DNA of 64,000 nucleotides from a bacterium (GCA_965221165.1 CBDCRP010000003.1:1568001-1632000), one strand, 5' to 3'; shown: positions 1-16,226, numbered from the stretch's first letter. Notes: generated from the sequence alone by a model not told the origin. Translations and numbers: made by a program.

Positions 1-83
1 GGGAAATGCTCCACCGCGCCGCATTCCCACGTGTATACAACGCCACGGACGGTCTCAGCTCCTGAAGCATTCGATGAGGTCAT
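1..83 (-). CDS. Partial gene (5' end), probable 4HBT-like thioesterase
   Basis: ATG at 83 reads MTSSNASGAETVRGVVYTWECGAVEHF and runs off the window; resembles the hotdog thioesterase N-terminal motif; lies downstream of hcmA. Confidence 0.35.
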   Translation of the reverse strand, partial: MTSSNASGAETVRGVVYTWECGAVEHF

Positions 84-216
84 GGTTCGGCGCTCTCGTT
101 TCAATGTAAGGCCCATGCGATCCTGACAGATAGAACGGGCGCAACCGCCGGCCAAGTAAGATAATAGACAGAGTGCCAGGAGATTTAACTCTGATTACAG
201 CGGGCCATCGTTTGAA

Positions 217-1908
217 TCAGAAAACCGGCGTTTCCCGGTAGGTGCCCCAGACCGACTTCAGTTTCTCGACGATATCTCCCATTGTTGCGCCCTCGCGCAC
301 AAGTTCAACCGTGACGGGCATGATGTTCCGCGTCTCGTCCTTTGCGACGGAGACGAGCTCCTCCAGAAGCATATCGACCTTGGCGTTGTCGCGTTCGGCG
401 CGCACCCTCCTCGTCCGCGCGATCTGCCGATCGGCGGTCGTGGAATCATAGGGATGGGTCTCGACCTCCTGGTTTTCGTCCTCCTCGACCATGGTGTTGA
501 CCCCGATGACCGGCTTTTCACCGGATTGCTTGCGCAAGGCGGTCTCATAAGCGAAGTCGGCGATCTGCTTCTGGAACCAGCCTTCCTCGATCAATTTGAT
601 CGTGCCGCCGTTTTCATCCACATAGTCGAGAATCTCGAAAATGCGCGTCTCGTACTCGTTGGTCAGGCTCTCGAGGTAGTAGGAGCCGCCCACCGGATCG
701 ATGACGTTGGTGACGTTTGTTTCCTCTGCAATTATCTGCTGCGTGCGCAAGGCTAGCCGCATGGCGTCCTCGGTCGGAATCGCGAACGCTTCGTCATAGC
801 CGTTTGTGTGCAGCGACTGGCAACCGCCAAGGACTGCGGCGAGGGCCTGGAACGCGGTTCGCACGATGTTGATCCGGTATTGCGGCTTGGTCAGGGTCGC
901 GGCCGCGGTCTGGCAATGGAAACGAAGCCGCATCGATTCCGGGTTCTTTGCGCCAAAGCGCTCTTTCATGATCTTGGCGTAACAGCGGCGCAGCGCCCGG
1001 AACTTGGCGATCTCCTCGAACAGGTCCGCTTGCGAGACGTAGAAGAAAGCAAGCCTCGGCGCGAACTCGTCGACGTTCATGCCGATCTTCAGCACCTCCT
1101 CCACGTAGACGATCAGGTTGGCCATGGTGAAGGCGGCCTCCTGCAAAGGCGAGGAGCCGGCCTCCGAGATGTGATAACCCGAGATATTGATCGGGTTGTA
1201 CCGCTTCATATTGCGGCCGCAGAAGGAGATGCAATCGCGCACGATGCGGACCGATGGCGCGATCGGATAGATGTACTCCTTCTGCGCCATATACTCTTTC
1301 AGTATGTCCGCCTGGATGGTGCCTGAGAGCTTGTTCAGGTCGAGGCCGCGCTTCTCGGCCAGCGCCACATACATGGCGAGCAAGATCCAGGCACTGGGGT
1401 TGATGGTCATCGATACGGAGATGTTCTCGAGATCGATGCCGTCGAACAGCGCCTCCATGTCGGCGAGCGTATCCACGGCCACGCCTTCGCGGCCCACCTC
1501 GCCCTCGCTCATCGGATGGTCGGAGTCGTAGCCCATGAGCGTGGGCATATCGAAGTCGGTCGATAGCCCTGTCTGCCCCTGCGAGATCAGATATTTGAAA
1601 CGTTTGTTGGTGTCTTCGCCGGTACCGAAACCGGCGATCTGGCGCATGGTCCACACCCGACCGCGATACATCGTCGGGTAGGGCCCGCGCGTAAAGGGAT
1701 AGCGCCCCGGCAGACCGATATCCTCGAGTGGCGTTTCAGCAATATCGGCAGCGGTATAGACACGCTGCACCGGAAAATCGCCGATTGTGAAGAATTGCTC
1801 CTTGCGCTCGGCTTGTTTCTTCAGGAAGGCAGCGACCTCGTCGCTCTCCCAATGCTCGATCTCGCTCCGGAGTTTCTCAAGCGAATTTAGAGTGAACATC
1901 TCGTTCAT
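217..1908 (-). CDS. hcmA: 2-hydroxyisobutyryl-CoA mutase large subunit (B12-dependent acyl-CoA mutase)
   Basis: Mutase large subunit with WTMRQIAGFG (Ile where MCM has Tyr and ICM has Phe) and STDFDMPT; ATG 1908 after GAGGGAG; C-terminus WGTYRETPVF. Confidence 0.9.
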   Translation of the reverse strand: MNEMFTLNSLEKLRSEIEHWESDEVAAFLKKQAERKEQFFTIGDFPVQRVYTAADIAETPLEDIGLPGRYPFTRGPYPTMYRGRVWTMRQIAGFGTGEDTNKRFKYLISQGQTGLSTDFDMPTLMGYDSDHPMSEGEVGREGVAVDTLADMEALFDGIDLENISVSMTINPSAWILLAMYVALAEKRGLDLNKLSGTIQADILKEYMAQKEYIYPIAPSVRIVRDCISFCGRNMKRYNPINISGYHISEAGSSPLQEAAFTMANLIVYVEEVLKIGMNVDEFAPRLAFFYVSQADLFEEIAKFRALRRCYAKIMKERFGAKNPESMRLRFHCQTAAATLTKPQYRINIVRTAFQALAAVLGGCQSLHTNGYDEAFAIPTEDAMRLALRTQQIIAEETNVTNVIDPVGGSYYLESLTNEYETRIFEILDYVDENGGTIKLIEEGWFQKQIADFAYETALRKQSGEKPVIGVNTMVEEDENQEVETHPYDSTTADRQIARTRRVRAERDNAKVDMLLEELVSVAKDETRNIMPVTVELVREGATMGDIVEKLKSVWGTYRETPVF

Positions 1909-2881
1909 GGTCTCCCTCTCTTTCGAGCGTCGTCGAGAGCAATTCTTCTGCCAGAGAATAGGGATCGCTCTCTCGGCGCATAAGCTGTTCGGCAAGTTTC
2001 GCGCTCGCCGCAGCCGTGGCAACGTTAAATCGATCATACAAAAGATTTTCGGCGGTCTTGCGCAGCCGGAATTCTGCGATGCTTTTGCGCCGCGCCCGGC
2101 CCGCATCGGTATCAGAGGTCACATCGCGATGCCGGGCAATCGCCTTCAGCAACTCGTCGAGCCCTTCTCCGGAAACAGAACTGGTACCGATCACGGGGAC
2201 AGCCCAGTCGGATGGTTCGTGCCCGTGCATTCCGAGCGTCAGCATTTGCTTCAAATCGATCAGCGTCCGATTGGCGTCGCTGCGGTCGCATTTCGACACT
2301 ACATGGATGTCGGCGATCTCCAGAATGCCCGCCTTGATCGCCTGGATCTCGTCGCCAAGGCCGGGCGGGGAAACCACTACCGTGGTGTGGGAAGCCCGCA
2401 CGATCTCGACCTCGTCCTGGCCCACGCCAACGGTTTCCAGAATGATGACCCCAAAACCGGCGGCATCAAGAATATCGACCGCCTCGAGAGCCGCGCGCGC
2501 CATGCCGCCAGTCGCCCCGTGAGTCGCCATGCTGCGGATATAAATGCCGGGATCGGTCCCTATGTCGCTCATGCGAATGCGGTCTCCCAGGATGGAGCCG
2601 CCCGAAAAGGGAGAGGATGGATCAATCGCAATGATGCCGACCTTCTCGCCGCTGGAACGCAGTCTTTGCGCCAGCCGGCTAACGAGTGTGGATTTTCCGC
2701 TGCCGGTTACCCCGGTTATGCCAACGACATGCGCTCGTCCGGCAAGTTTGTGAATCCGGGCGAGTGCGTCACGCGCTTCCGCCAGGCCCGACTCCGCGCG
2801 CGATATGAGGCGACCGATCGCGGCCGGCTCGCCTGTTTGAACGCGAGAAATGAGTTCCACGGAAGGGACATAGACTCTCAT
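1877..2881 (-). CDS. meaH: MeaB/ArgK-family G-protein chaperone of acyl-CoA mutase
   Basis: GITGVTGSGKST P-loop, DPSSPFSGGSILGDRIRM, ETVGVGQ, QAIKAGILEIAD. Confidence 0.9.
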   Translation of the reverse strand: MRVYVPSVELISRVQTGEPAAIGRLISRAESGLAEARDALARIHKLAGRAHVVGITGVTGSGKSTLVSRLAQRLRSSGEKVGIIAIDPSSPFSGGSILGDRIRMSDIGTDPGIYIRSMATHGATGGMARAALEAVDILDAAGFGVIILETVGVGQDEVEIVRASHTTVVVSPPGLGDEIQAIKAGILEIADIHVVSKCDRSDANRTLIDLKQMLTLGMHGHEPSDWAVPVIGTSSVSGEGLDELLKAIARHRDVTSDTDAGRARRKSIAEFRLRKTAENLLYDRFNVATAAASAKLAEQLMRRESDPYSLAEELLSTTLEREGDHERDVHSKFA

Positions 2882-4311
2882 CAGCGGTTTTCTTCATCCA
2901 GTTGTGTTTGCATCTCCTGGAAGACGGCCCTGTCGTCGATCACGCGGCGCGCCTTGAAATCCGTTCGGGGGATCGAGCCCGGCCCGACGATCTCCACGGC
3001 CGTCCGCAGCCCGAGCACCTTCTGCAACTGGTGCTCAACCTCGGTGCAGAACCGGGCGGCGCCGTCAGCATTGGCGAAGGTCTCGGTGTCGGTCTCGACG
3101 CGCAACTGTAACTCGTCCATTGCCGCCTCGCGGCTGATCACGATCCGGTGCTCTCCGCCATAGTGCGCAAGTTCGTTGAGCGCGGCGTCTATCTCGCTTG
3201 GATAAACATTCTCGCCGCGGATCGTGAACATGTCATCGATGCGCCCGAAAATACCGTGCGGCAGGCGCGGATAGGTCCGTCCACATGGGTTCAGTTCGTT
3301 GACCCATCGAGTCAGGTCCCCCGACGCCAGGCGGATCATTGGCTGAGAGGCGCGTTCGAGATGGGTGTACACAGGCGTTCCTCGTTCCCCGTAGGGGACC
3401 CGACGCATGGTTTCGGGATCGCACACTTCCGTGTAGACGACGTCCTGCCAGCAGAGCATTCCGTCCGTCTCGGCCGAACTTGCCACGTTCATCCACGGAC
3501 TCATCTCGGCCATGGAACCGCTGTCGTAAACCTTGGCCCCGTAGAGCCCCTCGATGCGCTCGCGGATGGCCGGGATCGAGGCGCCAGGCTCACCGGAAAA
3601 GAACATGATTTTGAGCTGCATGTCGCGAGGGTTCAGGCCCTCGTCTTCCGCGACCCGGGCGAGGTGCAGGGCGTAGGTCGGCGTACCGTAGAAGGCGGTG
3701 GGCTTCAGCATGTCGAGCCATTGCACGCAGCGCGCCGACATGCCGGACGCGCCGGCGCCAAACGGGAAAGATTTTGCACCGAGGCGTTCTGCGCCGGCGA
3801 GCGCCCCCCAACTCCCCATATAGAGAGAAAATACAGCGGCAATACAAATCGTATCCCCGGGGCGCAGACCCATGCTCCACATGATACGCGCATGCGCGTT
3901 GGCTATGGCGCGCCAGTCGCCCTGTGAGATGGCGAAGGCAGTGGGTCGCCCGGTCGTGCCACTGGTGCCATGGATGTGAAAGACATCGTCTTCGCCCACG
4001 CAGAGGTAACCACCAAAGGGCGGATTGCGTTCCTGGGCCTCGCGCAGGTCCTTCTTGGTAAGGACCGGGACCTTCTCCTCGAAGTCCTCAAGCGACTTAA
4101 GCCGGCTCGGGTGAAAACCGGCCTCATCCCATTTGTGGCGATAGAGGGCCGCATGCTCGTAGGCATAGGCGCAGACTTGCCGAAGGCGCCCCAGGATGGC
4201 CTTCTCCCGGTCTCCCGCCGGCATCGTCTCCCGCCGGGGGAACCAGTAGCGGCTATCTGGAGCCGGCAGAAAGTTCTCGTCGTAAGCGGGTGGGAATGAC
4301 CAGGACTCCAT
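2881..4311 (-). CDS. hcl: 2-hydroxyisobutyrate-CoA ligase (PaaK-like)
   Basis: HGTSGTTGRP, SGEPG, GRIDDMFTIRGENVYPS; position between hcmB and meaH. Confidence 0.85.
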   Translation of the reverse strand: MESWSFPPAYDENFLPAPDSRYWFPRRETMPAGDREKAILGRLRQVCAYAYEHAALYRHKWDEAGFHPSRLKSLEDFEEKVPVLTKKDLREAQERNPPFGGYLCVGEDDVFHIHGTSGTTGRPTAFAISQGDWRAIANAHARIMWSMGLRPGDTICIAAVFSLYMGSWGALAGAERLGAKSFPFGAGASGMSARCVQWLDMLKPTAFYGTPTYALHLARVAEDEGLNPRDMQLKIMFFSGEPGASIPAIRERIEGLYGAKVYDSGSMAEMSPWMNVASSAETDGMLCWQDVVYTEVCDPETMRRVPYGERGTPVYTHLERASQPMIRLASGDLTRWVNELNPCGRTYPRLPHGIFGRIDDMFTIRGENVYPSEIDAALNELAHYGGEHRIVISREAAMDELQLRVETDTETFANADGAARFCTEVEHQLQKVLGLRTAVEIVGPGSIPRTDFKARRVIDDRAVFQEMQTQLDEENR

Positions 4312-4321
4312 GGATATCGGA

Positions 4322-4729
4322 TCAGCGCGCGCCGCGCTCCTCCACGAGACGGGTCAGCGTATCGATAATCGTTTGCGGTGGCGTATCCTGCAGCAACACC
4401 TCGCTTACCCCCATTTTCTTGAGTTGGACCACATCTTCGTCCGGCATAACACCGCCGGCCACGACGATCATGTCATCGGCGCCGCCTTCCCGAAGCAGGT
4501 CGAATATCTTGGGGAACACCGTCATCTGCACACCGGACAAGAGACTTACGCCGAGCACGTCGACGTCTTCCTGTACGGCAGCGGTCACCAACTCTTCCGG
4601 TGAGCGGTGAAGGCCGGTGTAGATCACGTCCATACCGGCGTCCCGCAGGGCGCGGGCGACGATCTTGACGCCTCGGTCGTGACCGTCGAGACCCACCTTC
4701 GCCAGCAGGACGCGAATCGGCTGACCCAT
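4322..4729 (-). CDS. hcmB: Acyl-CoA mutase small cobalamin-binding subunit
   Basis: GLDGHDRG (DxHxxG) and GVSLLSG B12-binding motifs. Confidence 0.9.
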   Translation of the reverse strand: MGQPIRVLLAKVGLDGHDRGVKIVARALRDAGMDVIYTGLHRSPEELVTAAVQEDVDVLGVSLLSGVQMTVFPKIFDLLREGGADDMIVVAGGVMPDEDVVQLKKMGVSEVLLQDTPPQTIIDTLTRLVEERGAR

Positions 4730-4753
4730 GGGGCGTTCCTCATCGGGCTCTTA

Positions 4754-4765
4754 TTTGTATACGAA
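4754..4765. promoter_or_regulatory. Putative GntR-family operator
   Basis: Near-palindrome TTTGTATACGAA between hcmB and a divergent GntR remnant. Confidence 0.4.
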
Positions 4766-4841
4766 AACGGTATTCAACCTGCACAAAAAGCACCATACTG
4801 TCAAGGGGAAACAGAATCGACCCGCAGGAAGGAATGATCTC

Positions 4842-5005
4842 GTGGACGCCCTTGCTCACCCGAAGACACTCGTCGAGCAAGCCTATGACGCCATGCTGGA
4901 TGAAGTGGCAAAAAGGCTGAACGTCTCACGTCAGCCCATCACCAGCGCGCTGCCGATGCTCAAGTCCCAGGGCTTTGTTCGCGAAGCGGGGCGGCGGGGT
5001 TTCGG
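4842..5005 (+). pseudogene. GntR-family regulator N-terminal remnant
   Basis: TLVEQAYDAMLDE-VAKRLNVSRQPITSALPMLKSQGFV-REAGRRG is a wHTH with an internal gap and no effector domain. Confidence 0.6.
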
Positions 5006-5305
5006 GGGATTGGCGGCCTCGGCGAGGGCGGCTCTCAGTTTTTCCAGGCAATCGGCCACGTTTCTGCCCTGATCGCGAAAGCGGCTGCTCGCGATGACCA
5101 CCTCGCGCGAGACGCGGCGCGGGAATTTCTCGCAAAACCTGCGCTTCACCTCTTCCGGCGCGCTCGCCGATGCGCCCATGTTCCAGCGGAGCACCGCCTT
5201 GCTCGACACCTTGTTCACGTTCTGCCCGCCGGGCCCCGAACTCCGCGCGAACTGAAAGTGGATTTCCCTGAGCGGAATCTTGAGCCTCTCGTTCACGATG
5301 AGCAT
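4931..5305 (-). CDS. arfB: ArfB/YaeJ alternative ribosome-rescue peptidyl-tRNA hydrolase, C-terminal tail apparently truncated
   Basis: ARSSGPGGQNVNKV (GGQ motif), RFRDQGRN; the basic tail stops after PKPRRP. Confidence 0.75.
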   Translation of the reverse strand: MLIVNERLKIPLREIHFQFARSSGPGGQNVNKVSSKAVLRWNMGASASAPEEVKRRFCEKFPRRVSREVVIASSRFRDQGRNVADCLEKLRAALAEAANPPKPRRPASRTKPWDLSIGSALVMG

Positions 5306-5484
5306 GGGTGATTACTCCCGGGGGGTGGGGGGCTCATGGCGTTGGTGGGGGATATCCTACCATGAGCGAGGGGGACTTTCGTGGTGGGTGGGTTGGGGGG
5401 GGGTAGTAGCGGAAGAACTAGAAAAGTAAACTCCACCATTCCCGGTATACCGTGCCTGTTACAAATATCCGCAAAATAGAAGGG

Positions 5485-6111
5485 TCATTTTTTTTGTACA
5501 GGGTCGATTTTCGGCAAACTGCTACAAGTCGCCGCAACATCCTCCCCTATCATCTCAATAACCATGCTTAATTGATGTTGTGGGACTCTCATGCGTGCAT
5601 CGCGAAGGGCGTTCACTATTGCATCGATCTGACCTTGCTGTCCGAGCGCACTTCGTACTGTCTCATGGAGCAACAGATCTATTGTAGAAGCCACCACAAG
5701 ATTCGGAAATCTATTTTTACAAATGTTCTGAGCTTTCCGCTCATCAATGAGCGCTACACCTCCTATTTCGTGAGCATATCCGATCGTCGTAGCCTCACCG
5801 TCGTCCAAGGTGTCCAGTGTAATCCCCACAACTAACGATTCGTAGATGCGGTTTCCGGCTTCACCAAGTCGGGCTAGCTGGACGGCACCGCAGCCAATCA
5901 AAACCTTGAGTTTTTCAGCGTCCCTGTGTCCACGGGAGACACCTCTTTCTAATTCAGCGAATGTATGCTCGGTCACGGTAACCGATCCAGGTTGCGCCTT
6001 TATGATATCAATCGCTCGGCCCGTGGCGTTTAGATTGATAACGACACTTGCATCAGCAACGAGAACGGTACTCGAACTAATCTCAAAGCTTGAGGAGTTC
6101 ATTCGCTTCAT
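5485..6111 (-). CDS. PIN-like domain protein (putative nuclease or toxin)
   Basis: LVADASVVINL, AEL, LDDGEA, LIDERKA acidic PIN-type pattern. Confidence 0.65.
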   Translation of the reverse strand: MKRMNSSSFEISSSTVLVADASVVINLNATGRAIDIIKAQPGSVTVTEHTFAELERGVSRGHRDAEKLKVLIGCGAVQLARLGEAGNRIYESLVVGITLDTLDDGEATTIGYAHEIGGVALIDERKAQNICKNRFPNLVVASTIDLLLHETVRSALGQQGQIDAIVNALRDARMRVPQHQLSMVIEMIGEDVAATCSSLPKIDPVQKK

Positions 6112-7261
6112 TTTCCTCCGTTTCAGCCCCGTCGAGTACCTCCCTCATCTCATTTCGATCAAGGTTCAAAAGACGCGCAAGTTGGCCTTCACTATAAAAG
6201 TTTCGTTTCCAAACCTCTCTTGCCAATAGAGCCAGGCGCGGTGGAACAGGCCCTTGAGCATCTATTGCGTGAATGCGTTTATCCGGCAAGTCACCCAATA
6301 CCTGACGTGCCTGCTTATCAGTGATGCCCCCATTTGCGACAAACCAATCCCAAGTTCCCTTTCTAGCAAGAAAAAGCTCTTCGAGCCTACGTCCTATTGC
6401 TTCTCGCGAAATACCAAAAGCGTGAGCAAGAAGAATAATATGCCGCCGCGTCAGGTGAGACTGCCCGGCCGTATATTCTGCAAACCGCTGTTGGACAGCC
6501 CGTGCGGGCGTTAGGAAACAACGTGAGAAGCAATTTGCATAGCGTTCTTCGCGGGATGCAAATTTCTCGTCTAGAGTGAAAACTTCGGGTTTTTGCCGGG
6601 TCCCCATAAAATGCGCGAGTTCATGAATAACGGATTGTCTGAGGCGTTCAATGGGATGGTTTGCATTCAAAAGTATGCAGGCTCCAGCAATTTCATCATA
6701 TGCAAACAGCCCAGAAATTTTCCCATCCAGCCGTCTGAGATAGATCCGAATACCAAACCGAAGATCAAGCATCTGAATGACATCGAGAATAGGCCCAGAA
6801 CCAAGGCCAAGCCAGTCCCTGAGTTCCTGTGCGTCCTGTTCCGCCTGTATTCTCACATCGCCAGGAAGAATCGGCCTCTCGGGTGGGTAATTTCGTGTGC
6901 GTTCGATCCCGAGCATGTTCTCAAGTTCAACTTCCGCACGAACGAGATCGTTGAGTAGTTTTGCCGCATTCTCAATGGCATCGTTCGTACTTTGGTACAA
7001 CCTACGAAAGCGTGGCACCATATCAAGATGAACAGCTTCCCGCCTCAAAATCGCATTGACGGACGTGTCATATATAGCAGCTAACTTCTGTAATTCACTC
7101 ATTCGGACTCGCCGCTGACCTTGCTCAAGGGCTACGATGGTAGTACGTGCAACATCAATTGCATTAGCCGCTGATGCTTGGGTTTGTTTCGCTGATTCCC
7201 TTGCCATGCGAAGGCGTTGACCAATCTCTATGTCCGAAAATATGTCCGCAGGGAAAGTCAT
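6083..7261 (-). CDS. XRE-family HTH fused to ImmA/IrrE-type zinc metallopeptidase
   Basis: N-terminal HTH (IGQRLRMARE..TQ..VARTTIVALEQGQR); IHELAH (HExxH) plus ERYANCFS; ATG 7261 after GAGGA. Confidence 0.85.
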   Translation of the reverse strand: MTFPADIFSDIEIGQRLRMARESAKQTQASAANAIDVARTTIVALEQGQRRVRMSELQKLAAIYDTSVNAILRREAVHLDMVPRFRRLYQSTNDAIENAAKLLNDLVRAEVELENMLGIERTRNYPPERPILPGDVRIQAEQDAQELRDWLGLGSGPILDVIQMLDLRFGIRIYLRRLDGKISGLFAYDEIAGACILLNANHPIERLRQSVIHELAHFMGTRQKPEVFTLDEKFASREERYANCFSRCFLTPARAVQQRFAEYTAGQSHLTRRHIILLAHAFGISREAIGRRLEELFLARKGTWDWFVANGGITDKQARQVLGDLPDKRIHAIDAQGPVPPRLALLAREVWKRNFYSEGQLARLLNLDRNEMREVLDGAETEENEANELLKL

Positions 7262-7263
7262 TT

Positions 7264-8631
7264 TTATCCTCGCGCCCATTGTTTTACAAAAGAATTAGGG
7301 CCAAGTGAGTCCAGGTAGTGTTGCCATTCATCCGCATGTTTTAGGAGGAGTGTTCTCAGGTACTTAAAAATTTCTTCGCATGAATGGTCAAGCGCAGGCT
7401 CAAGAAGCATGGCGTGTCTCTCGACCAACAGCCTCATATTTTCTTTCTCCATAGTGGCCAGATGCTCCATGTGCAGGACGCCTGCAATCGCGTAATTACG
7501 GTAGGCGCTATTTAACTTCGTGAAATCCGGATCGACGGCATCATCTAAGGTTGTCGCTGACATGTTAATGCAGATGTAGGCATCGGGACGCTCTCTCAGG
7601 CCGGCGGCATGCACGGCGACTCGTCTCAACATGCAAGCAGCGCAGACTCCGCAGTGACGCCATTTTCGATTTACGGAACTCCATTGGTTACTACGCCAGC
7701 AGGACCTCGTAGATTGCCAGTCGTTTTTTCCGGAAAGAGAACTGAACTTTTTAAGTGTCTCACCTTTGGTGTTCCATATTCGCGGAAAAATGTAGCGAAC
7801 TTGCTTACCTAGGAGCGCCTCAGTGAAACGCTGCATTCGCATCGTAAAAAGAGGATGATTCCGGTAATCCTTATAGGTGTGTCCTGAGTCTACCAACACT
7901 GGTCCGAACACGCCCTGTCCACTTTCGGGAACGATAATTTTCTCAGCATCGGTTATATAAGCGGCGATGGCGCTAATTAAAGTAAACTTGAAACCCCGAC
8001 TACGAAAACTCGACTCTCTTTTGGGGGTATGACTTGAAACTTTATAGGGCACATTCGTGAAGGGTTGGAAGCCGTTGTGATGCGATGGTTTGTTACTACT
8101 CTTTGCTCCAATCCTTACACGAACGAGTTTTTCGCCGAACATTTCACCGAGGATGCCTGCTACAGCAAACGAATCCATACCGTCACTAAATGCAATGATG
8201 GCTTCCGTTGGCACCTTCAAATTGAGATAATCCTGCGGTGGAGATGGTGCTTCACTCGAACGTCCAATGAAGTCTATTGACCAATAGTCTCCCGTTAGAA
8301 ATCCAACCGCATCATGAAGTGCAGCGGATGTGTCCGGCGCATTCCACCGTGTAGGATCGTGTACGGGTATTTTGAGTGATATTCGGCGCGCCCACTCTTG
8401 AGTCGGACGTTTGACGGTTCTATCGCCAAATTCGATGGCGGCAGCAACAACCATTGCATCATAAAGCACCGTTTCCCATCGGGCGAATGAATAGGTCCGT
8501 AGTGCTGCGGTCGAGAATCTTATGTCGCGCTCAAGTTCCAATGGAATGTAATCATTTCCGGGGTGCTGGCTCGGTTCTATCACATCAATTTTTTTCTCTG
8601 ACATCCTTCCGAAAAAAGATTTGGTATTCAA
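7264..8631 (-). CDS. QueC-like PP-loop enzyme of the QatC type
   Basis: AFSDGMDS PP-loop, RSRGFKF, PESGQG, TKGE, TRSCW and HCGVCAACMLRR zinc site; N-terminal extension with IPVHDP..W and FLTGDYW. Confidence 0.8.
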   Translation of the reverse strand: MNTKSFFGRMSEKKIDVIEPSQHPGNDYIPLELERDIRFSTAALRTYSFARWETVLYDAMVVAAAIEFGDRTVKRPTQEWARRISLKIPVHDPTRWNAPDTSAALHDAVGFLTGDYWSIDFIGRSSEAPSPPQDYLNLKVPTEAIIAFSDGMDSFAVAGILGEMFGEKLVRVRIGAKSSNKPSHHNGFQPFTNVPYKVSSHTPKRESSFRSRGFKFTLISAIAAYITDAEKIIVPESGQGVFGPVLVDSGHTYKDYRNHPLFTMRMQRFTEALLGKQVRYIFPRIWNTKGETLKKFSSLSGKNDWQSTRSCWRSNQWSSVNRKWRHCGVCAACMLRRVAVHAAGLRERPDAYICINMSATTLDDAVDPDFTKLNSAYRNYAIAGVLHMEHLATMEKENMRLLVERHAMLLEPALDHSCEEIFKYLRTLLLKHADEWQHYLDSLGPNSFVKQWARG

Positions 8632-9185
8632 AGCAACGGCCCCTCATCAAGACCAGTGCGTTTAGTTAAACGGAAATCGGTGTTTGAGAGGCTGCTAGAC
8701 GTCAATTCCGATACAAGAGTTTCATATCCACATTGGGAGCGAGCAATACTTAAGCGGCTGCGTATATATGACACACTGCCCGGTTTTTTTCTGAGATGAT
8801 GCTCTTCGATTTGACGGCAAACGTCCAGTGCATAAGTTTCAAGAGCATTTTTAAATGCGTGCCTGAAAGCGGTATCACCGGTCATCCCGTTTTTGTTAAC
8901 TTCAATTGCACAATCAAGGAGAATATTTCCCTCTGCAGAGCCTCGGCAAATCTGGCGGGCATCGTTAAGTTGTAAAGAGATTTCTTCCCTACACTGTGAA
9001 GCCTTTATTCCATTAACGAATATGTCACAAATTTCAGATAGTGGGACTTTTGAATAATCTTTCCTAAGGCCGAAAGAGAATGCTTCGTCCAACTCTACAT
9101 GTGAAAATGCGGGACTTTGAGCTCTCTCTGCGAATTTTTTCCAGTGTCGCCTCATCGGCAAACTTTTATGTGGCCCATCACTCAT
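8628..9185 (-). CDS. Hypothetical protein, first gene of the QueC-like operon
   Basis: 185-aa ORF, RBS AGGAGGT at 9191-9197, stop overlaps the QueC-like start. Confidence 0.75.
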   Translation of the reverse strand: MSDGPHKSLPMRRHWKKFAERAQSPAFSHVELDEAFSFGLRKDYSKVPLSEICDIFVNGIKASQCREEISLQLNDARQICRGSAEGNILLDCAIEVNKNGMTGDTAFRHAFKNALETYALDVCRQIEEHHLRKKPGSVSYIRSRLSIARSQCGYETLVSELTSSSLSNTDFRLTKRTGLDEGPLL

Positions 9186-9205
9186 AAAGCACCTCCTATG
9201 TCATA

Positions 9206-9235
9206 ATTATATTTTAATATACCTGACATTGTCAA
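9206..9235 (-). promoter_or_regulatory. Sigma70 promoter TTGACA-N18-TATAAT with overlapping palindrome
   Basis: Minus strand TTGACA (9235-9230) and TATAAT (9211-9206); palindrome TGACA-T-TGTCA at 9224-9234. Confidence 0.7.
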
Positions 9236-9340
9236 TAACAAAGGTGCTAAACTTCACCTTTCTTAAAAATCCAGCAACTGTCGGGGACAATGAAACAAAT
9301 CGAGGTGATATTGCAGGCCACAGAAAGAAACACCCCCCCA

Positions 9341-9515
9341 CCCGCATTTCCCCGCATTTGCGCCTGGGCGCAAGTCTGAGCGGGGCATATCGCTTGAAAG
9401 TCCAGGCCTCATTCCGCTCCCCGGAACAAGTGAAAAAATGCTGAAAAATGGTGAAAAATAGGCGAAATTAAGTGAAAATATCTGAAAATTTATAATGTTG
9501 TTATTATTAGGGTTA
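9341..9515 (-). repeat. Dispersed ~175-bp element, copy 1 (phased TTTTCA repeats, IHF-like box, AAATGCGGGG tandem)
   Basis: Reverse complement is colinear with 22232-22407. Confidence 0.55.
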
Positions 9516-9520
9516 CGCGG

Positions 9521-10687
9521 TTAAACGACCTTATCCGCGCGCATTCGGAAAATCTCCTCCTCACCATAGCCGAGCTCGGCGAGAATGGCTTCGGTGTGCT
9601 CGCCCGCCCCCGGCGCAGGACGTGAGAAATCGGGCGTCTCGCCGCTGAACGCAAGCGGCGACCCAGGCAGCAAGCCCGGCCCGGCTACCGGGTGGTCGAC
9701 CTGGACGAAGGCATCCGGGAAGCGTTCCTTCACCCGGGCGACGTCGTTGATGGCGCTCACCGTAACGCCTTTGGGGATAAGGGCCTCCTCCCACTCGGCG
9801 GTCGTCTTCTCGGTCAAGACGCTCTCCAGAATCCCGCGCAGGGCGGCATCGTTCGCCACGCGGTCTTTGTTCTCGGCGAAGCGCGGATCGTCGGCGAGCG
9901 CCGGCCGGCCTAGGGCCTCGACGAAGACGCGGTAGCGGTTCGTGTTCGAGATCGCCACGAAAATGAGGCCGTCTTTCGTCTTATAGCCCGAAAAAGGAGA
10001 GACCACCGGATGGGAAAGCCCCTCGGGCCGAGGCACTTGGCCTGTGAACGTGTGGCGCGCCACCGGGTTTTCCATGATGTTCACCGTCGCGCCCATCATC
10101 GAGGCGTCTACGCGCATGCCCTCTCCGGTGCGCTCCCTGCGGAACAGGGCGGTGAGAACGCCCGAGAGGAGATAGAGGCCGCTCGCCACGTCCACAATCG
10201 AGACGCCCACGCGCACGGGTTCTCCGTCCACAGGCCCCGTCACGCTGATGAGGCCGCCCGCGGCTTGCAAAAGGCTGTCGAAAGCGGGGCGCCCGGCGTT
10301 CTTCCCGGTCTGGCCGAAGCCTGAGACCGCTGCGTATATGAGCCCGGGGTTTTCTTTTTTAAGGACATCCCAGCCCACGCCCAGGCGATCCATGACGCCG
10401 GGGAGGAGGTTTTCCACCAGAACGTCCGCCCCGCGGCAGAGTTTCCTGAATACCTCCACGCCTTCCGGGTTTTTGAGATCAAGCGTGATGGAGCGCTTGC
10501 CGCGATTCAAGCTCATGAAGTAGCTGCTCTCGCCATTCCGGAAAGGACCGATGGCGCGGCTGTCCTCACCGCCGGGGCGCTCCACCTTCACGACTTCCGC
10601 GCCATAGCCCGCCAGATAGAGCGATACGATGGGGCCGGCATTAAACTGGCTGGCGTCAATGACCTTCAAACCCTGGAGGAGTGACAT
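9521..10687 (-). CDS. CoA-transferase family III (CaiB/BaiF)
   Basis: GAEVVKVERPGGE, NRGKRSITLDLK, ADVLVEN, SGFGQTG. Confidence 0.9.
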   Translation of the reverse strand: MSLLQGLKVIDASQFNAGPIVSLYLAGYGAEVVKVERPGGEDSRAIGPFRNGESSYFMSLNRGKRSITLDLKNPEGVEVFRKLCRGADVLVENLLPGVMDRLGVGWDVLKKENPGLIYAAVSGFGQTGKNAGRPAFDSLLQAAGGLISVTGPVDGEPVRVGVSIVDVASGLYLLSGVLTALFRRERTGEGMRVDASMMGATVNIMENPVARHTFTGQVPRPEGLSHPVVSPFSGYKTKDGLIFVAISNTNRYRVFVEALGRPALADDPRFAENKDRVANDAALRGILESVLTEKTTAEWEEALIPKGVTVSAINDVARVKERFPDAFVQVDHPVAGPGLLPGSPLAFSGETPDFSRPAPGAGEHTEAILAELGYGEEEIFRMRADKVV

Positions 10688-10705
10688 CGGATGCGTGGGT
10701 GCTTT

Positions 10706-11653
10706 CTAGCGGCGTTTCCTGGCGCTTTTGGGGGCCGTTTTCTTCGCAGCAGTCTTTTTCGCGGGTTTTTTCGTCGTTTGGGCGGGTTTTTTCGCCACTT
10801 GTCGCTTGGCCGCCTTCTTCGCGGCGACTTTTGGGGCGGGGGCTTTCTTCGTTGCAGCTTTCGCGGCTTTGGGGGCGACCGTCTTCTTTTTGACCGCCGT
10901 TTTCCTCGTAGCCGCCGCTTTTTTCTGGGCGGTAGCCGTATTCGTCTTGGAGAGGGTCGTTTTTCTCTTCACCGTAGTGGTCTTCTTGGAAGCAGCGGCC
11001 GCTTTCTTTTTCAAAACGGAGGCTTTTTTCCTGGCCGCTGTTCGTTTTTTCTGCACTGCGGCTTTTCTAGAGGCTTCTTTCTTTTTTTGCGCCTGTTGTT
11101 TTTTCCTTTGCTTTTGTTCTTTGATACGCACTGCCTCAGCAGCCCGTATTTCTTCTTCCGTAGGCGGAAAAACAGGTTTCCTCCGACCCGTAATCAAGCG
11201 AAAGGCATACCCCACTTGGGTTTCGCGCCATTCATTCTCCCCGAGATCCTGCAACACAAGTTCGACCGGAGAGCCCGGAACAAGCATGTCCCGATAACCT
11301 TCCCAATCGATTAAATGGGAATTTATCTTTATGCCCTCATCGAGGAGTATTACCGCAGAAACGCGCTCTTCGTTCCCTTCCACAGATGAACGGGTAACCG
11401 TGGCCGAAAGAAGTTTACCCTTCCCGCTGAGAAGCACTTCACTCGTGCTACGCGGACAAACCGGGTTATCACAAGTGGTTTTCGAGCCGGTCTTCGGGAA
11501 AAAATACTCTTCGCATTCCTTACAAACAGACCCAATGAGTTTGGGCTTATGACGAGAATTCCTGGGAATCGTAAAAACATCGCGCATAAACGGAACAACA
11601 ACTTTATTTTTCTCAGGTACGAAAATCGAAGGCTGATTCTGGGGGGAGTTCAT
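10706..11653 (-). CDS. Zn-ribbon/OB-fold (DUF35-like) protein with histone-H1-like Lys/Ala tail
   Basis: LIGSVCKEC..YFFP..CDNPVC..LSGKGKL..GYAFR followed by about 140 aa of KKAA/KKTA/KKPA repeats. Confidence 0.7.
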   Translation of the reverse strand: MNSPQNQPSIFVPEKNKVVVPFMRDVFTIPRNSRHKPKLIGSVCKECEEYFFPKTGSKTTCDNPVCPRSTSEVLLSGKGKLLSATVTRSSVEGNEERVSAVILLDEGIKINSHLIDWEGYRDMLVPGSPVELVLQDLGENEWRETQVGYAFRLITGRRKPVFPPTEEEIRAAEAVRIKEQKQRKKQQAQKKKEASRKAAVQKKRTAARKKASVLKKKAAAASKKTTTVKRKTTLSKTNTATAQKKAAATRKTAVKKKTVAPKAAKAATKKAPAPKVAAKKAAKRQVAKKPAQTTKKPAKKTAAKKTAPKSARKRR

Positions 11654-11960
11654 GTACTACCCTGCTTTTGAAGTTCCGATAAACCAAATCTAAGTAAACG
11701 AAATGTAAACAGCTAGTTAAAACTCATAGGCATGCATGGATTAGTGCGCGAACACTATCAAGGGGTTTCGCGAGTGTCAAGATGAGTTCAGACTGGGCAA
11801 ATCCCTGCATACCAAATTTTTCGAATTCCCAGTCCGCTATTTGAAAATTACCTCCATTTATAGCCACGATAAGACTCAAGCCAACCTTGATTTTCGCGAC
11901 TTGACCATCTAAAACCTGCAATCTTATAGTCATCAATCGTATTGATATAAAGGACGCGGT

Positions 11961-13403
11961 ATGACTGACCCACACAATCCGAATAGCGAATCCACACTAC
12001 TACGACTACTACCTTCCGTGGACGAAATTGTTACTCGCCTAAAAAATGAAGGCGTCAATGGTTCGTCGGATGCTGCATTGTCCGATGCGGCAAGAAAAGC
12101 AATCGGAGTGAAAAGACAGCTTCTGCTTGAACAAATGAACAAAAACTTCCCGAAAGCTACAGAAAACCCACCAATATCCGAACAAACCCTTCAAGATATT
12201 GTTGTAAATGACGCAAAGCGGATTCTCTCTTCGAATAAACTGCTTGGATTAAAAAAAGTCATCAACGCAACAGGAATCGTGCTACACACAAATCTGGGTC
12301 GAGCCCCATTAAGTGACGCCGCAAGGTCGGCATTAAATGATGTAGCGCAAGGATATTCAAATTTAGAATTCGACCTGAATCTCGGGCTGCGAGGAAAAAG
12401 AGGGGCCGATGTGGAATCTCTTCTTTGTCAGCTAACAGGAGCGGAAGCAGCATTGGTCGTCAACAATAACGCCGCGGCCGTGATGTTCGCGATTCATACG
12501 ATGGCCGATTCTGCTGAAGTGATCGTTTCACGAGGAGAGTTGGTTGAAATCGGCGGTTCCTTTCGAATTCCGGATATTATGCTCCAAAGTGGCGCTAAAT
12601 TAGTAGAAGTAGGGACAACGAACAAAACGAGAATATCCGACTACCAGAACGCCATTACCCAAGATACGACTTTGCTGCTGAAGGCGCATACAAGCAATTA
12701 CAGGATTGTCGGCTTTACGGAAGAAGTATCCCGTGATGAACTCTCAGAGCTTGGGAGAGAAAAAAATATACCCACGCTAGAGGACCTTGGGAGCGGTTCA
12801 CTTCTTCATATTGATGGTCTCCCGCATGAACCTACTGTGATGGGATCGATACGAGCGGGAATCGACGTCATTACATTTTCTGGAGACAAGCTACTGGGTG
12901 GCCCACAGGCTGGTATCGTTGTCGGCAAGACGATATGGATAGAGAGAATGAAAAAACATCCACTCATGCGCGTTCTCAGGCTGGACAAACTCACCCTCGC
13001 CGCTTTGGAGGCGACACTCAGGGGATATCTTGATCCTGATGCCGCCCACACCCAGATCCCGATTCTTCAAATGTTGTCCACCAACCGGGAAAAACTGAAA
13101 AAACAGGCGGAATCTTTGATGAATCTGATGGGGGAACATACTTGTTCCGTGCTCGGCGCCAAGGTGGAAGAAACTTCGGGGATGGTAGGCGGCGGGGCCA
13201 TGCCCCTGGCGAAACTCGATAGTTTCGCAGTGACATTATTTCCCAACAATTTTTCCGCCAAATCGTTGGAAACCAAGCTGCGCAATGCTACTCCACCTGT
13301 TGTGGCACGCATTCATGAGGATAAAGTAATACTTGACCTGCGATGCATTAGAGTAGGGGAAATAAATCAACTTGGCGTGATTCTCAACGAATTCGCAAAG
13401 TAA
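11961..13403 (+). CDS. selA: L-seryl-tRNA(Sec) selenium transferase
   Basis: VINATGIVLHTNLGRAPL, VVNNNAAA, SRGELVEIGGSFRIPD, FSGDKLLGGPQAG. Confidence 0.95.
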   Translation: MTDPHNPNSESTLLRLLPSVDEIVTRLKNEGVNGSSDAALSDAARKAIGVKRQLLLEQMNKNFPKATENPPISEQTLQDIVVNDAKRILSSNKLLGLKKVINATGIVLHTNLGRAPLSDAARSALNDVAQGYSNLEFDLNLGLRGKRGADVESLLCQLTGAEAALVVNNNAAAVMFAIHTMADSAEVIVSRGELVEIGGSFRIPDIMLQSGAKLVEVGTTNKTRISDYQNAITQDTTLLLKAHTSNYRIVGFTEEVSRDELSELGREKNIPTLEDLGSGSLLHIDGLPHEPTVMGSIRAGIDVITFSGDKLLGGPQAGIVVGKTIWIERMKKHPLMRVLRLDKLTLAALEATLRGYLDPDAAHTQIPILQMLSTNREKLKKQAESLMNLMGEHTCSVLGAKVEETSGMVGGGAMPLAKLDSFAVTLFPNNFSAKSLETKLRNATPPVVARIHEDKVILDLRCIRVGEINQLGVILNEFAK

Positions 13404-13463
13404 TCTTCAATCTTCTGCGCATATAATTTTCTCGTCATCACGAAAACAGGGGACAATATTCCG

Positions 13464-14267
13464 ATGCCAACCGTTAATTCCGAAGGTGTTGCAATAGATT
13501 ATGAAGTCATCAATTCCCAGAATACCAATACGCCTGTATTCCTGATTAGCGGGTTGGGAGGCATTCGCGCATCATGGACGAAGCAAATCGACGCTTTTTC
13601 TGCGACCAGGCCACTCATCCTTCATGACCATAGGGGAACAGGAAATAGCGCAAAACCGAGCGGGGTATATAGCGTTCCCAACATGGCGAAAGATATCACC
13701 GCTATCATGGATGACCTGGGAATAGAAAAAGCGCATCTCGTCGGCAGTTCAACCGGCGGAGCCATCATCCAAGTAATGTGCATTGACTATCCCGGCCGTG
13801 TCAAAAGCGGCTCCATAGTAAGTTCCTGGCCCAAGAGCGACGCATATTTCATCCGTCAGTTTAGCGTGCGCAAAAAAGTTTTACTCGGGATGGGATGGGA
13901 AACTTACACGAGATTTTCCACATTCACCTTGCATAGCCCAAAGTTTTTCACCGACAACTTTGAGGAAATTCAAATGCAAGAAAACCAATCGATAGCCAAC
14001 GCGCCTCCGGCTGAGATTATGGCCGAGAGAATCGAGTGCATTATTGCGCATGATCAGTTGGACCGCTTGGGTCAAATCACAAGTCCGGTGCTAGTGGCCG
14101 TTGCAAGGGACGATGTCGTCACTCCCCTCTACTATTCTTATCAATTGAGCGATGCCATCCCTGGAGCTGAATTGAAAATTTTTGATGAAGGCGGCCATTT
14201 CGTATATCTTGAAAAACCGGTTGAATTCAATGAATCGATCCTTGAATTCATCCATCGCCATGACTAA
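13464..14267 (+). CDS. Alpha/beta hydrolase (RutD-like)
   Basis: DHRGTGNS, GSSTGG nucleophile elbow, GGHF. Confidence 0.85.
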   Translation: MPTVNSEGVAIDYEVINSQNTNTPVFLISGLGGIRASWTKQIDAFSATRPLILHDHRGTGNSAKPSGVYSVPNMAKDITAIMDDLGIEKAHLVGSSTGGAIIQVMCIDYPGRVKSGSIVSSWPKSDAYFIRQFSVRKKVLLGMGWETYTRFSTFTLHSPKFFTDNFEEIQMQENQSIANAPPAEIMAERIECIIAHDQLDRLGQITSPVLVAVARDDVVTPLYYSYQLSDAIPGAELKIFDEGGHFVYLEKPVEFNESILEFIHRHD

Positions 14268-14315
14268 TCGATATTTTTATATCTCGCCTATCAACCACGA
14301 AGGCGAAACCACCTT

Positions 14316-16226
14316 ATGAAACATGTCGTCATTGGAACCGCTGGCCACATCGATCATGGCAAAACCTTTCTCGTCAAAGCGTTAACCGGCACAGACACTG
14401 ATCGCCTAAAAGAAGAAAAAGAACGCGGCATCACCATCGAACTCGGGTTTGCGGAGTTGATTCTCGGTCACATCCACGCAGGTATCGTGGATGTTCCGGG
14501 ACATGAACGATTCGTAAAAAACATGTTGGCAGGAGTCGGAGGGATCGATTTGGTGATACTGATCATCGCTGCCGATGAAGGCGTCATGCCGCAAACGAGG
14601 GAGCATTTGTCGATTTGCCGACTTCTCGGGGTAAAAACCGGCCTCATCGTGCTCACCAAAACAGATCTGGTCGAACCAGAATGGGTTGAACTTGTGACGG
14701 ACGATATACAAGACTTCGTCAAAGATACCTTTTTGGAAGAAAAACCCATCGTGCCGGTTTCGGCTCACACTGGAGATGGTCTGGAAAATCTCAAAAAAGC
14801 TTTGGTCGAAATCGCAAATCAGACGCCTGCAAAAAGCGAAACGGGTATCTTTCGAATACCGATTGACCGTGTATTCACGATGCGGGGCTTCGGTGTCGTG
14901 ATAACGGGAACCTTGTTCAGTGGAAGTGTGGCTGTAGGTGAACAAATTGAAGTTTACCCTAAGACTCTTCAGGCGCGCGTTCGTGGCTTACAAGTACATG
15001 GGAAGTCCGTGGAAAAATCGACTGCCGGCCTCAGAACCGCCGTGAATCTTCAGGGCCTCGAGCGAGCGGAGGTGTTCAGGGGAGATATCATCGGTCATAG
15101 TGGTGAACTGAAAACAACGTATATGCTCGACGTTTATCTTGAGCATCTAGGCGATGCGCCTCGTCCTTTGAAAACCCGGAATCGTATTCGCTTCCATGCA
15201 GGCACCGCTGAAATCATGGGCAGGATATCTCTCATCGGACGAGATGTGCTCGAACCGGGAGATAATTTATTTGCCCAAATACGGCTGGAGGAACCTATCG
15301 TCGTACTGCCCAGAGATCGATTTGTCATCAGAAGTTATTCGCCAATCATCACGATAGGTGGCGGGGAAATCTTAGATATTATGCCTCGCAAGCATAGACG
15401 ATTGCGGAGTTCGTCTATAGATCACTTGAAATCACTTTATCAAGGTGATGAGACGGAAAGATTGCTCATATTACTCCAGGACTCACGGTTGAATGGGGTT
15501 GAGCTCACTGACCTCACAGGCCGTCTCACACTAAAGCCAAGTGACATCGAAAAAACCATTCAAGAATTAGCTGCTCAAGGAGAAGTGGAAATTATCGACC
15601 AAGTCAATTTTTTCTCGATGACTACAGCGCACTTCAACACAGCCCAAAAAAATATTCTCACTTTTTTGAAGAAATATCATACTGAGAACCCTCTTCGCAC
15701 AGGAGCACCTAAGGAAGAAGTTCGCGGTAAGGCAGGCGACATCAATGAAAAAATCTTTACCGCCGCACTTAAACACTTAAGCGAATCAAACGAAATTGTT
15801 GAAAATGGGGCCATCCTAAGGCTCGCTTCCCATTCAGTAGAAATTGATGAAACACTCGGAGAAGTGAAAACAAAACTAGAGAAGATTTTCGAGATTGCCC
15901 ACTTTCAACCGCCATCCGTCGAAGACGCATTCTCACACAGCGGCGGCAAAGACAACTCAAATCGAAATGCCTTGCAAATCCTCATCGACGAAGGCGCCTT
16001 ACTGCGACTGAAAGATAACATTATCTATCATAAAAATGCTTTAAACGAAGCAGAAAACCTCCTTAAAGAGCATCTATCATTCAACAACGAAATTTCGGCG
16101 GCGGAATTTCGGGACCTGTTGGGCATCACAAGAAAACACGCCATACCTTTGCTTGAATATTTCGATACCGCACGCGTTACGCTACGGGTGGGAGACAAAA
16201 GAGTGCTTCGGCCAGACGCGAGATAA
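14316..16226 (+). CDS. selB: Selenocysteine-specific elongation factor
   Basis: [29 protein letters not shown]-terminal [13 protein letters not shown] winged helix. Confidence 0.95.

Follow-up and report, generated by a model that had tools for sequence, protein, structure and literature searches.

Four overlapping genes on the minus strand at positions 5485-9185 of a 64,000-nucleotide stretch of bacterial DNA (GCA_965221165.1 CBDCRP010000003.1:1568001-1632000; the whole stretch is hereafter the window) make up a conserved cassette, and we propose that it is an unnamed variant of the Qat family, most likely working as an anti-phage or abortive-infection system, a proposal which, taken with the full mechanism set out below, we consider to have an even chance of being right. 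The genes, named A, B, C and D in operon order, overlap by 4 nucleotides (nt; A/B), 16 nt (B/C) and 29 nt (C/D). Gene A (8628-9185) encodes an all-helical protein of 185 amino acids (aa), the proposed QatB-like substrate and partner of B; gene B (7264-8631), which starts with TTG, encodes a PP-loop ATP pyrophosphatase of 455 aa, a QueC-family enzyme that is QatC-like and extended at both termini; gene C (6083-7279) encodes a 398-aa protein that joins an Xre-type helix-turn-helix (HTH), an M78 (ImmA/IrrE) zinc peptidase and a C-terminal domain of ~100 aa, the proposed autorepressor and antitoxin-like partner of D; and gene D (5485-6111) encodes a 208-aa VapC-like PIN-domain nuclease with a C-terminal helical extension, the proposed effector. 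The original prediction, made from the DNA of the window, had described four overlapping same-strand genes behind a single promoter, which the calls of the open reading frames (ORFs), together with one promoter that matches the consensus throughout, bear out.

The order of the four genes is kept among relatives of the cassette. Scoring of 8000 candidates gave 2427 relatives of B at E<=0.001, with lengths of 446-461 aa for the top 120, and the loci were sampled by a profile scan of one genome per species with a 23-row alignment of B (A1), an earlier pattern from the single B protein having given no relative; 203 of the 208 pattern matches were relatives of B, and 80 loci were kept. Conservation of the order had been set beforehand as a check on the original prediction, and tblastn searches with the four window proteins found A-B-C-D in the same order and on the same strand in 76 of these 80 loci. 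Of the remaining four, L004, L038 and L045 break off at a contig edge and L074 is without a detectable D. The overlaps recur as well, with 4 nt shared by A and B in 63 of 79 loci and 26 nt shared by C and D in 53 of 76, and the flanking genes are not conserved, the largest cluster holding 8 of 619 flank ORFs. A quick tree separates 78 B sequences, as a single clade, from four canonical QatC proteins (support of 100 in the Shimodaira-Hasegawa-like approximate likelihood ratio test, SH-aLRT), and the 10 phylum labels on this tree change 14 times, the minimum possible being 9, a pattern that fits repeated transfer; the B of the window groups with a Nitrospinota copy and a Sphingomonadales copy. 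A pattern-limited scan of viral contigs gave nine pattern matches and no B relative, and a search for fused forms of B of at least 798 aa, itself weak evidence, found none. In locus L074, a Binatia metagenome-assembled genome (8494-9388) with A, B and C present, a 94-aa ORF stands at the start position of D, and the ORF after it, of 176 aa (8858-9388, downstream of C), shows no relation to D (hhalign probability 0.08%); the effector could have decayed or been replaced there.

Plasmids show how tightly the four families are bound to each other. Among 72,556 plasmid records, B-like proteins fall into two classes: 26 records carry full-length matches of 33-58% identity, named '7-cyano-7-deazaguanine synthase' or hypothetical, and the remainder match at 23-31% identity over ~60-74% of the query and are mostly annotated qatC. 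Relatives of D are found in 26 records, each of which holds the system; 25 of these records coincide with the 25 best for B, at the expected spacing, and 14 of the 26 are conjugative plasmids. Relatives of C with at least 46.7% identity occur in 25 records, always beside B, while the next best reach at most 29.5%, and all 15 matches to A lie beside B. Close relatives of all four proteins in plasmids occur only together, which argues against two systems standing merely side by side, and the cassette is self-contained and horizontally mobile.

Protein B places the cassette near QatC. Its PP-loop (S149-D-G-M-D-S154) is preceded by ~145 residues, it carries the cysteines C311, C327, C330 and C333, and Pfam QueC covers residues 251-341 only, that is, the last third. 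B matches the PADLOC QatC profile at 4.1e-31 and NCBIfam QatC (NF041925) at 119.4 bits, against a cut-off of 280 bits; the B-family profile matches QatC chains of the PDB (9vlk, 7.5e-23; 9zee, 1.4e-20), and identity to four canonical QatC proteins is 23-24%. The QatC-specific motifs listed in the available text of PMC13329287 are all present in B, namely D70x4R75, W80xR82 and D115xWxxxF121 in the N-terminal part and R210xRxxxF216, E236xG238, H259-P260, P283x4T288-K289 and CGxCxxCxxRR in the rest, and the last of them, a zinc knuckle, is found in 79 of 79 B sequences. These residues and profile matches agree with the original prediction, which had read a QueC-like protein with a long N-terminal extension, an SDGMDS PP-loop and a zinc site. 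Strict patterns for the PP-loop (69/79) and for the HE[LI][GAS]H motif of C (46/78) were over-strict, and the alignments were relied on in their place.

On this QatC-type scaffold, B carries a loop that resembles that of the metabolic enzyme, a feature that the original prediction had overlooked. According to the text available of PMC13329287 and PMC13279940, QatC is without the YPDC motif, and the Tyr/Asp pair that holds the deazaguanine in QueC and in Cap9 has been replaced by two invariant threonines. In B the loop reads Y253-K-D255-Y-R-N-H-P, with a family consensus of Y-x-D-[YF]-R-[NS]-H-P, and HMMER aligns it to YPDCRD of the QueC structure 2pg3, whereas the four canonical QatC proteins have S-T-R-T-T-H-P there; D255 is invariant in alignment A1. 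The motifs suggest that B may have retained the ancestral nucleobase pocket, and that 7-carboxy-7-deazaguanine would be a more plausible substrate for B than for QatC.

Protein A matches no model of Pfam, PADLOC or NCBIfam, and its family comprises 963 representative clusters. Its N-terminus is nevertheless nearly invariant: MSDGP stands in 79 of 80 loci and MTDGP in one, followed by [HYW][RK]S, with L9 in 80/80 and W15 in 78/80, so that the tail M[ST]DGP..SL....W is found in 80/80 loci despite an overall identity of 24-53% to the A of the window, whose own tail reads MSDGPHKSLPM..W15 (family motif MSDGP[HYW][RK]SL). The AlphaFold2 model is an eight-helix bundle with flexible tails (predicted local distance difference test, pLDDT, 90.1), for which Foldseek found no PDB fold match at E<=1e-3 and the ESM Atlas gave sub-threshold matches only, the best at 0.84. 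The predicted complex of A with B reached an ipSAE (interaction prediction score from aligned errors) of 0.89, with runs between 0.88 and 0.91 that have at least 72% of contacts in common and a partner pLDDT of at least 82, against 0.51 for the best control; of 80 solved complexes, 58 attain the mark used, as do 2 of 110 mismatched pairs, counts that are rough and come with custom alignments. Confident contacts in the predicted complex lie at 4-12 and 77-139 of A, including the conserved R124, E128, H129 and R132, and at 247-255 (the loop with Y253 and D255), 375-409 (the C-terminal helices) and 77-116 of B.

This arrangement invites comparison with QatB, described in the available text of PMC13279940 as a helical protein without structural relatives, with a long N-terminal tail that begins MGTS, has an essential Gly2 and conserved Pro16 and Trp18, and reaches the active site of QatC, which grips QatB by its C-terminal helices and an active-site loop. 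The predicted A-B interface appears to be of the same kind as in QatBC, with a geometry that resembles the one described there, and four QatB proteins from annotated plasmid qatABCD loci share MGTSxSSxGP...L16xP18xW20. Given its conserved tail, a gene that sits just upstream of that for the enzyme and overlaps it, and the predicted complex with B, A is most likely the counterpart of QatB, at once the protein substrate and the partner of a QueC-like enzyme. The original prediction had simply called it an unknown protein, which holds as far as family matches go and misses the QatB-like role suggested by the tail and the predicted complex. The C-terminus of A (window 8628-8660) reads G-L-D-E-G-P-L-L, an echo of the S-D-G-P near its start; across 60 sequences G182 never varies and the conservation of D180 is at least 90%, D[DE]GP occurs within the last 12 residues in 34 of 78 by an over-strict pattern, and this motif could be a second recognition or cleavage site.

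Proteins C and D form the other half of the cassette. C matches Pfam HTH_3 (6.2e-10) and Peptidase_M78 (1.3e-15) and, in PADLOC, 18 RmrA models (best 1.2e-20), capP (6.9e-12) and capH (2.9e-5); the HExxH residues H219, E220 and H223 are invariant in 42 sequences, in keeping with the HTH-ImmA peptidase that had been read from the DNA. It is more conserved than A, B or D (53-89% identity), and many residues are invariant both in the HTH and in the ~100-aa C-terminal domain, which belongs to no family. Chain A of PDB entry 9vzy, a 393-aa 'HTH cro/C1-type domain-containing protein' and thus of C-like length, matches C at 189-305 (M78; E=4e-8), and no paper naming this entry was found in the literature. 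D, for its part, matches Pfam PIN at E=0.047 and PADLOC PDC-S70 at 5.6e-9; its AlphaFold2 model (pLDDT 94.5) retrieves VapC, Nob1 and other PIN structures in Foldseek with a probability of 1.00, a target-normalised template modelling score, TM(target), of 0.6-0.7 and E ~1e-3. The residues D20, E53, D104, E106 and D123 are invariant in 47 sequences, the C-terminal helical extension is ~60 aa long, and the PIN-like nature first assigned to D stands on this profile match, fold and set of acidic residues. Separate HTH and M78 proteins switch on CBASS, the cyclic-oligonucleotide-based anti-phage signalling system (CapH/CapP), and the radiation response of Deinococcus (DdrO/IrrE), and VapC-type PIN proteins are usually restrained by a protein encoded next door. 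HTH-ImmA proteins have been validated as the antitoxins of Rosmer systems and form a hub whose partners include PIN-like toxins as well, and ImmR/ImmA, the switch of ICEBs1, again divides HTH and M78 between two proteins (as covered in the available text of PMC10440598).

Upstream of gene A, a conserved operator overlaps the promoter, which the original prediction had not noticed. The sigma-70 promoter (TTGACA-18-TATAAT; 9206-9235, minus strand) agrees with the consensus at 12 of 12 positions, and the sole other promoter-like site in 5200-9600 agrees at 9 of 12. The palindrome TGACAATGTCA at 9224-9234 overlaps the -35 hexamer and is the proposed operator for the HTH of C; a third half-site, TGACA (9199-9203, minus strand), follows the palindrome after 20 nt and precedes the start codon by 13 nt, beside the GGAGG ribosome-binding site (9192-9196). 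A perfect palindrome TGACANTGTCA (TGACA-N-TGTCA) stands 5' of gene A in 77 of 81 loci, the window included, with T (67) or A (10) as its central base. The related loci hold 76 palindromes in 962,823 bp, the same number as there are loci with an upstream site, so that none occurs elsewhere in them, and the window holds one. The palindrome followed by N14-24 and TGACA, one mismatch in the 3' arm being allowed, is found in 73 of 81 loci, with a spacer of 20 nt in 63 of the 73; in 70 of the 73 the distance from the end of the third site to the start codon is 11-15 nt. The simplest reading is that TGACAWTGTCA-N20-TGACA is a candidate site for autorepression by C, as suggested by the conservation of the sites across phyla, the rank of C as the most conserved protein and the invariant residues of its HTH.

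The cassette has entered the host chromosome as an insertion of roughly 4 kb, occupying approximately 5306-9420, with an arfB-like gene (4931-5305) on one side and a CoA-transferase gene (9521-10687) on the other. When window positions 4300-10700 were searched in 20 relatives, 12 of them of the same genus, 5306-9333 had no match in any of the 20 genomes, including all 12 of the genus, and 6 of the 12 same-genus genomes carry the arfB-like and CoA-transferase genes on one strand with 0.27-1.1 kb between them, the distance here being 4.2 kb. A comparison of repeats in the flanks found no clear attachment site or target duplication at the cassette ends; a weak inverted pair of 14 nt (5391-5404, G-rich, and 9330-9343, C-rich; 86% complementary) lies near them, and parts of 9334-9371 match short stretches elsewhere in the relatives. 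The ~100 nt that separate the cassette from the CoA-transferase gene (9421-9520) are AT-rich and make up a dispersed repeat, with more than 10 copies (78-86% identity) on all three contigs of the genome and similar matches in two same-genus genomes; this repeat may be an element of the REP (repetitive extragenic palindromic) or MITE (miniature inverted-repeat transposable element) kind and could mark the insertion point.

As for composition, GC content is 0.42-0.50 in 5501-9500 and 0.59-0.65 in 1-5500 and 9501-10500, so the AT-richer island of the original prediction is real in relation to its flanks and not unique to the cassette. Values of 0.41-0.50 return at 11001-16000, a region that spans a selA-like gene (11961-13403, by translation), and the window is a compositional mosaic beyond the cassette; composition alone is therefore no marker of an island. 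The minus-strand ORF at 10706-11653 (315 aa) has an ordinary N-terminal half with CxxC motifs and a C-terminal stretch of ~150 aa whose composition, nearly all Lys, Ala and Thr, recalls a histone H1 tail. No Rfam family was found in 4800-10000, and thus no preQ1 riboswitch. The genes of queuosine synthesis lie elsewhere: the cassette contains none of queD, queE, folE, tgt or dpd, in line with what had first been said of the window, and outside the window the host genome encodes a canonical QueC (197.7 bits), QueD, a QueE-like frame and TGT, its sole TGT sitting on another contig, with a weak match only for FolE type I.

The immediate neighbours of the related loci, of which 116 of 122 candidates (130-1200 aa) were scanned, are variable and rich in defence and mobility genes. 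Among them are AbiEi (7), Fic/SoFic (7), GajA-like ATPases (5), N6-methylases (4), UvrD helicases (4), integrases (4), resolvases (3), HipA (2) and RES (2); in five large neighbours the matches are to type IIG restriction-modification enzymes (two), PDC-S37/Hhe (one) and mad2 (one), and the fifth has no match. A Shedu nuclease adjoins the cassette on a Roseomonas plasmid, and a restriction endonuclease is found near it on an Agrobacterium plasmid. The surroundings are those typical of defence islands and mobile elements, the counts serving as context, without a random-neighbour baseline, and not as a measured enrichment.

We propose that the cassette could work as follows. B, an ATP-dependent PP-loop enzyme of the QatC type, would bind A through its C-terminal helices and the loop adjacent to its active site, as the predicted complex suggests, and would acylate the free N-terminal amine of A, which is Ser2 after removal of the initiator Met. 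The motifs point to 7-carboxy-7-deazaguanine from the host queuosine pathway as the probable acyl donor, because B keeps the Tyr/Asp pair used by canonical QueC and Cap9, and the reaction would then be a protein deazaguanylation. C, bound to TGACAWTGTCA-N20-TGACA over the promoter, would keep the operon repressed, as the conservation of the sites and of the HTH suggests, and by analogy with the HTH-ImmA antitoxins of Rosmer-type pairs it may restrain the PIN nuclease D. Upon infection, the state of A-B would change and act on the M78 domain of C, C would be cleaved or inactivated and the operon derepressed, and D, thereby freed, could cut RNA and stop growth. The pairing of A with B, the operator and the PIN fold come from tool results, and we infer the chemistry, the neutralisation of D by C and the coupling between the two halves, the last of these purely from the strict co-occurrence of the four families. 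In a more specific form, which we regard as doubtful, a nucleobase-protein conjugate would be the trigger of a protease-gated toxin: B would deazaguanylate the Ser N-terminus of A, and C, through its C-terminal domain or M78, would read the tail in its modified state or, on infection, its unmodified one, C then passing from repressor and antitoxin to a cleaved, inactive form and the PIN nuclease being released. If C does read the tail of A in this way, the B family would be an evolutionary intermediate between Cap9/QueC and the pocket-remodelled QatC, and would offer a tractable route to the chemistry of Qat systems.

Several points weigh against the proposal. The kinship of A with QatB finds no echo in sequence comparison, since hhalign against a four-sequence QatB profile gave a probability of 2.4%, no NCBIfam QatB match was obtained and no QatB chain of the PDB matched at E<=10; moreover, A begins with Ser-Asp-Gly-Pro where QatB has Gly-Thr-Ser with its essential Gly2. 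The confident contacts of the predicted complex include neither A 1-3 nor the PP-loop of B, which leaves insertion of the N-terminus into the catalytic centre unsupported, and the pass of the complex prediction may mirror likeness to solved QatBC structures. As for the pocket, a strict pattern places Tyr first in the loop in 65 of 79 B sequences, the Pro in the middle of YPD is variable in this family, and the reaction of QatC itself is, according to the available text of PMC13279940, not yet reconstituted. At the level of the system, co-occurrence is what joins A-B to C-D, L074 does without a detectable D, the defence genes among the neighbours are counted without a random-gene baseline, and the role of the cassette is proposed from its genes.

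The same observations can be arranged differently. It is possible, though on the unlikely side, that A and B alone are the sensor and effector, as for QatBC, that C is an infection- or damage-responsive switch akin to a fused CapH/CapP and that D is an accessory, range-widening nuclease replacing QatD, with no toxin-antitoxin relation between C and D. Such an arrangement would accord with the finding that QatB and QatC suffice against some phages while QatA and QatD alter the range only (PMC13279940 and PMC13434339, in their available text), with the capP and capH matches of C and with an operator over the promoter, which suits a pure regulator. Yet the conserved extra domain of C and its constraint, the strongest in the cassette, suggest partners beyond DNA; the C and D frames overlap by 26 nt in most of the loci, the D family in plasmids is found only with this system, and PIN proteins of the VapC type are as a rule checked by the product of an adjacent gene. 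Even less probable, in our estimation, is an addiction or stabilisation module of plasmids and genomic islands, a toxin-antitoxin unit with an elaborate regulator and no anti-phage role. The conjugative plasmids among the records with D, the integrases and resolvases (7 of the 116 neighbours) and the toxin-antitoxin-like layout of an HTH-ImmA protein with a PIN protein speak for it, but chromosomal copies are numerous, that of the window among them, phage defence is the function of the nearest relatives of B that have been characterised (QatC and Cap9), genes of the restriction-modification, Gabija-like, AbiE, Shedu and Hhe-like kinds stand among the neighbours, and a dedicated enzyme-substrate pair would be left unexplained.

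Two further explanations have been rejected. That the locus joins two unrelated systems, a minimal QatBC-like pair and an HTH-M78/PIN toxin-antitoxin pair, has some appeal because either half resembles a module that works alone (QatBC; Rosmer-type pairs), but such chance adjacency is largely refuted by the fixed order in 76 of 80 loci under 10 phylum labels, the overlapping frames, the single promoter and operator, and the absence of close C and D families without B in plasmids, and we hold it to be very improbable. Scarcely credible is the remaining one, in which B would be a metabolic 7-cyano-7-deazaguanine synthase and the locus would serve queuosine or DNA deazaguanine modification. The PGAP label of the plasmid relatives and the Tyr/Asp loop of B would suit it, but TIGR00364 reaches 22 bits against a cut-off of 150, YxQxHxxE and VPxRN are replaced by QatC-type motifs in B (motifs as given in the available text of PMC13329287), which leaves only the YPD-like loop and the zinc site, a proper QueC is encoded elsewhere in the genome, the cassette is without queD, queE, tgt and dpdA, and E. 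coli QatC fails to complement a queC deletion (PMC13329287, same text). The unnamed Qat-family variant remains our preferred reading, and the original prediction of a defence or stress module built of a QueC-type modification, an HTH-peptidase and a nuclease is supported in part, by the conserved order, the defence-type neighbours and the lack of a name, its mechanism staying a proposal.

Compared with known systems, the cassette is closest to Qat. B has the QatC architecture of N-terminal extension, PP-loop core, zinc knuckle and C-terminal helices along with its motifs; a small helical A with a conserved flexible tail lies directly upstream with a 4-nt overlap and is predicted to bind B; and there are four genes, one of them for a nuclease. 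It differs in being without QatA (a KAP NTPase) and QatD (TatD), in whose place HTH-M78 and PIN proteins stand, in an A of 185 aa with an MSDGP tail against a QatB of ~250-285 aa with MGTS, and in a B that falls below the NCBIfam QatC cut-off, forms its own clade and has Y-x-D where QatC has T-R-T. Searches of Pfam, PADLOC and NCBIfam gave no match to QatA, TatD or QatD, and none to a CD-NTase or a TGT-like family, among the four cassette proteins, in agreement with the first reading, which had noted the absence of the Qat ATPase, TatD and any CD-NTase and the HTH-M78 and PIN proteins present instead; the flanks are housekeeping genes shared with relatives. With type IV CBASS the cassette shares a QueC-family enzyme proposed to act on the N-terminus of a partner and, by alignment, the Tyr/Asp pair, which in Cap9 belongs to a deazaguanine role (available text of PMC13279940); it differs by lacking a CD-NTase, the TGT-like Cap10 reader and a cyclic-nucleotide effector, by a B of 455 aa with extensions against a Cap9 of ~185 aa, and by an acceptor that would be Ser here and not Gly.

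The second half of the cassette has other relatives. RosmerTA (RmrT/RmrA) resembles it in the HTH and M78 domains of C, the RmrA matches, the adjacent gene for a likely toxin and an antitoxin hub tied to PIN-like toxins (PMC10440598, available text), and differs in having two genes and not four, in RmrT models that D does not match and in lacking the extra C-terminal domain of C. CapH/CapP, ImmR/ImmA and DdrO/IrrE likewise bring an Xre HTH and an M78 peptidase to a defence or mobile-element operon with an operator over the promoter, whereas here both activities are fused in the one 398-aa chain of C. D recalls VapC and PDC-S70 in its PIN fold, four acidic residues and weak PDC-S70 match, and departs from them by its helical extension of ~60 aa and the absence of a VapB; PDC-S70 is a single-gene candidate, while the D family in plasmids occurs only inside the four-gene cassette.

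A profile scan with PADLOC-DB 2.0.0 (2023) and NCBIfam found no model for A and none that covers the four-gene unit, so that the original prediction of a system without a matching name held in these collections. RefSeq names the genes, in order, hypothetical protein, 7-cyano-7-deazaguanine synthase (relatives of B bear this name or hypothetical), XRE regulator or ImmA/IrrE peptidase, and hypothetical protein, and current defence finders would see at most weak QatC, RmrA and PDC-S70 matches in the cassette. In the main texts of the Qat and QueC literature searched, no QatC-like enzyme was found to be mentioned as having a peptidase, an HTH protein or a PIN protein for a partner. Canonical qatABCD accounts for 98.1% of detected Qat clusters (PMC13434339) and only ~34% of the QatC cluster adjoins qatA or qatD, the rest being undescribed in the text (PMC13329287), both as far as the available text of these papers goes; Supplementary Table S2 of PMC13329287, on QatC-cluster neighbourhoods, may already record an HTH or M78 association. 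New here are the tail of A with its predicted binding of B, the QatC motifs of B combined with the Tyr/Asp pair of QueC, and the operator over the promoter.

In conclusion, protein modification by the QueC family in immunity has been shown only recently, in type IV CBASS, and in QatABCD the reaction and the downstream mechanism are open, the pocket of QatC having lost the residues that would indicate its substrate. The B family keeps these residues on a QatC-type scaffold, A offers a short, near-invariant acceptor tail, and the outputs to which the pair would be connected are both well understood, one being a repressor-protease whose operator is defined and the other a PIN nuclease; therefore the adduct, the acceptor residue and the route of the signal can be tested by standard assays. 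The cassette family is common, as the relatives of B in species-representative genomes and the clusters of A show. Set beside its closest known counterparts, the cassette may thus represent a Qat-family variant that combines a QatBC-like pair, with the nucleobase residues of QueC and Cap9, and an output half of the kind known from RosmerTA, CapH/CapP and VapC.

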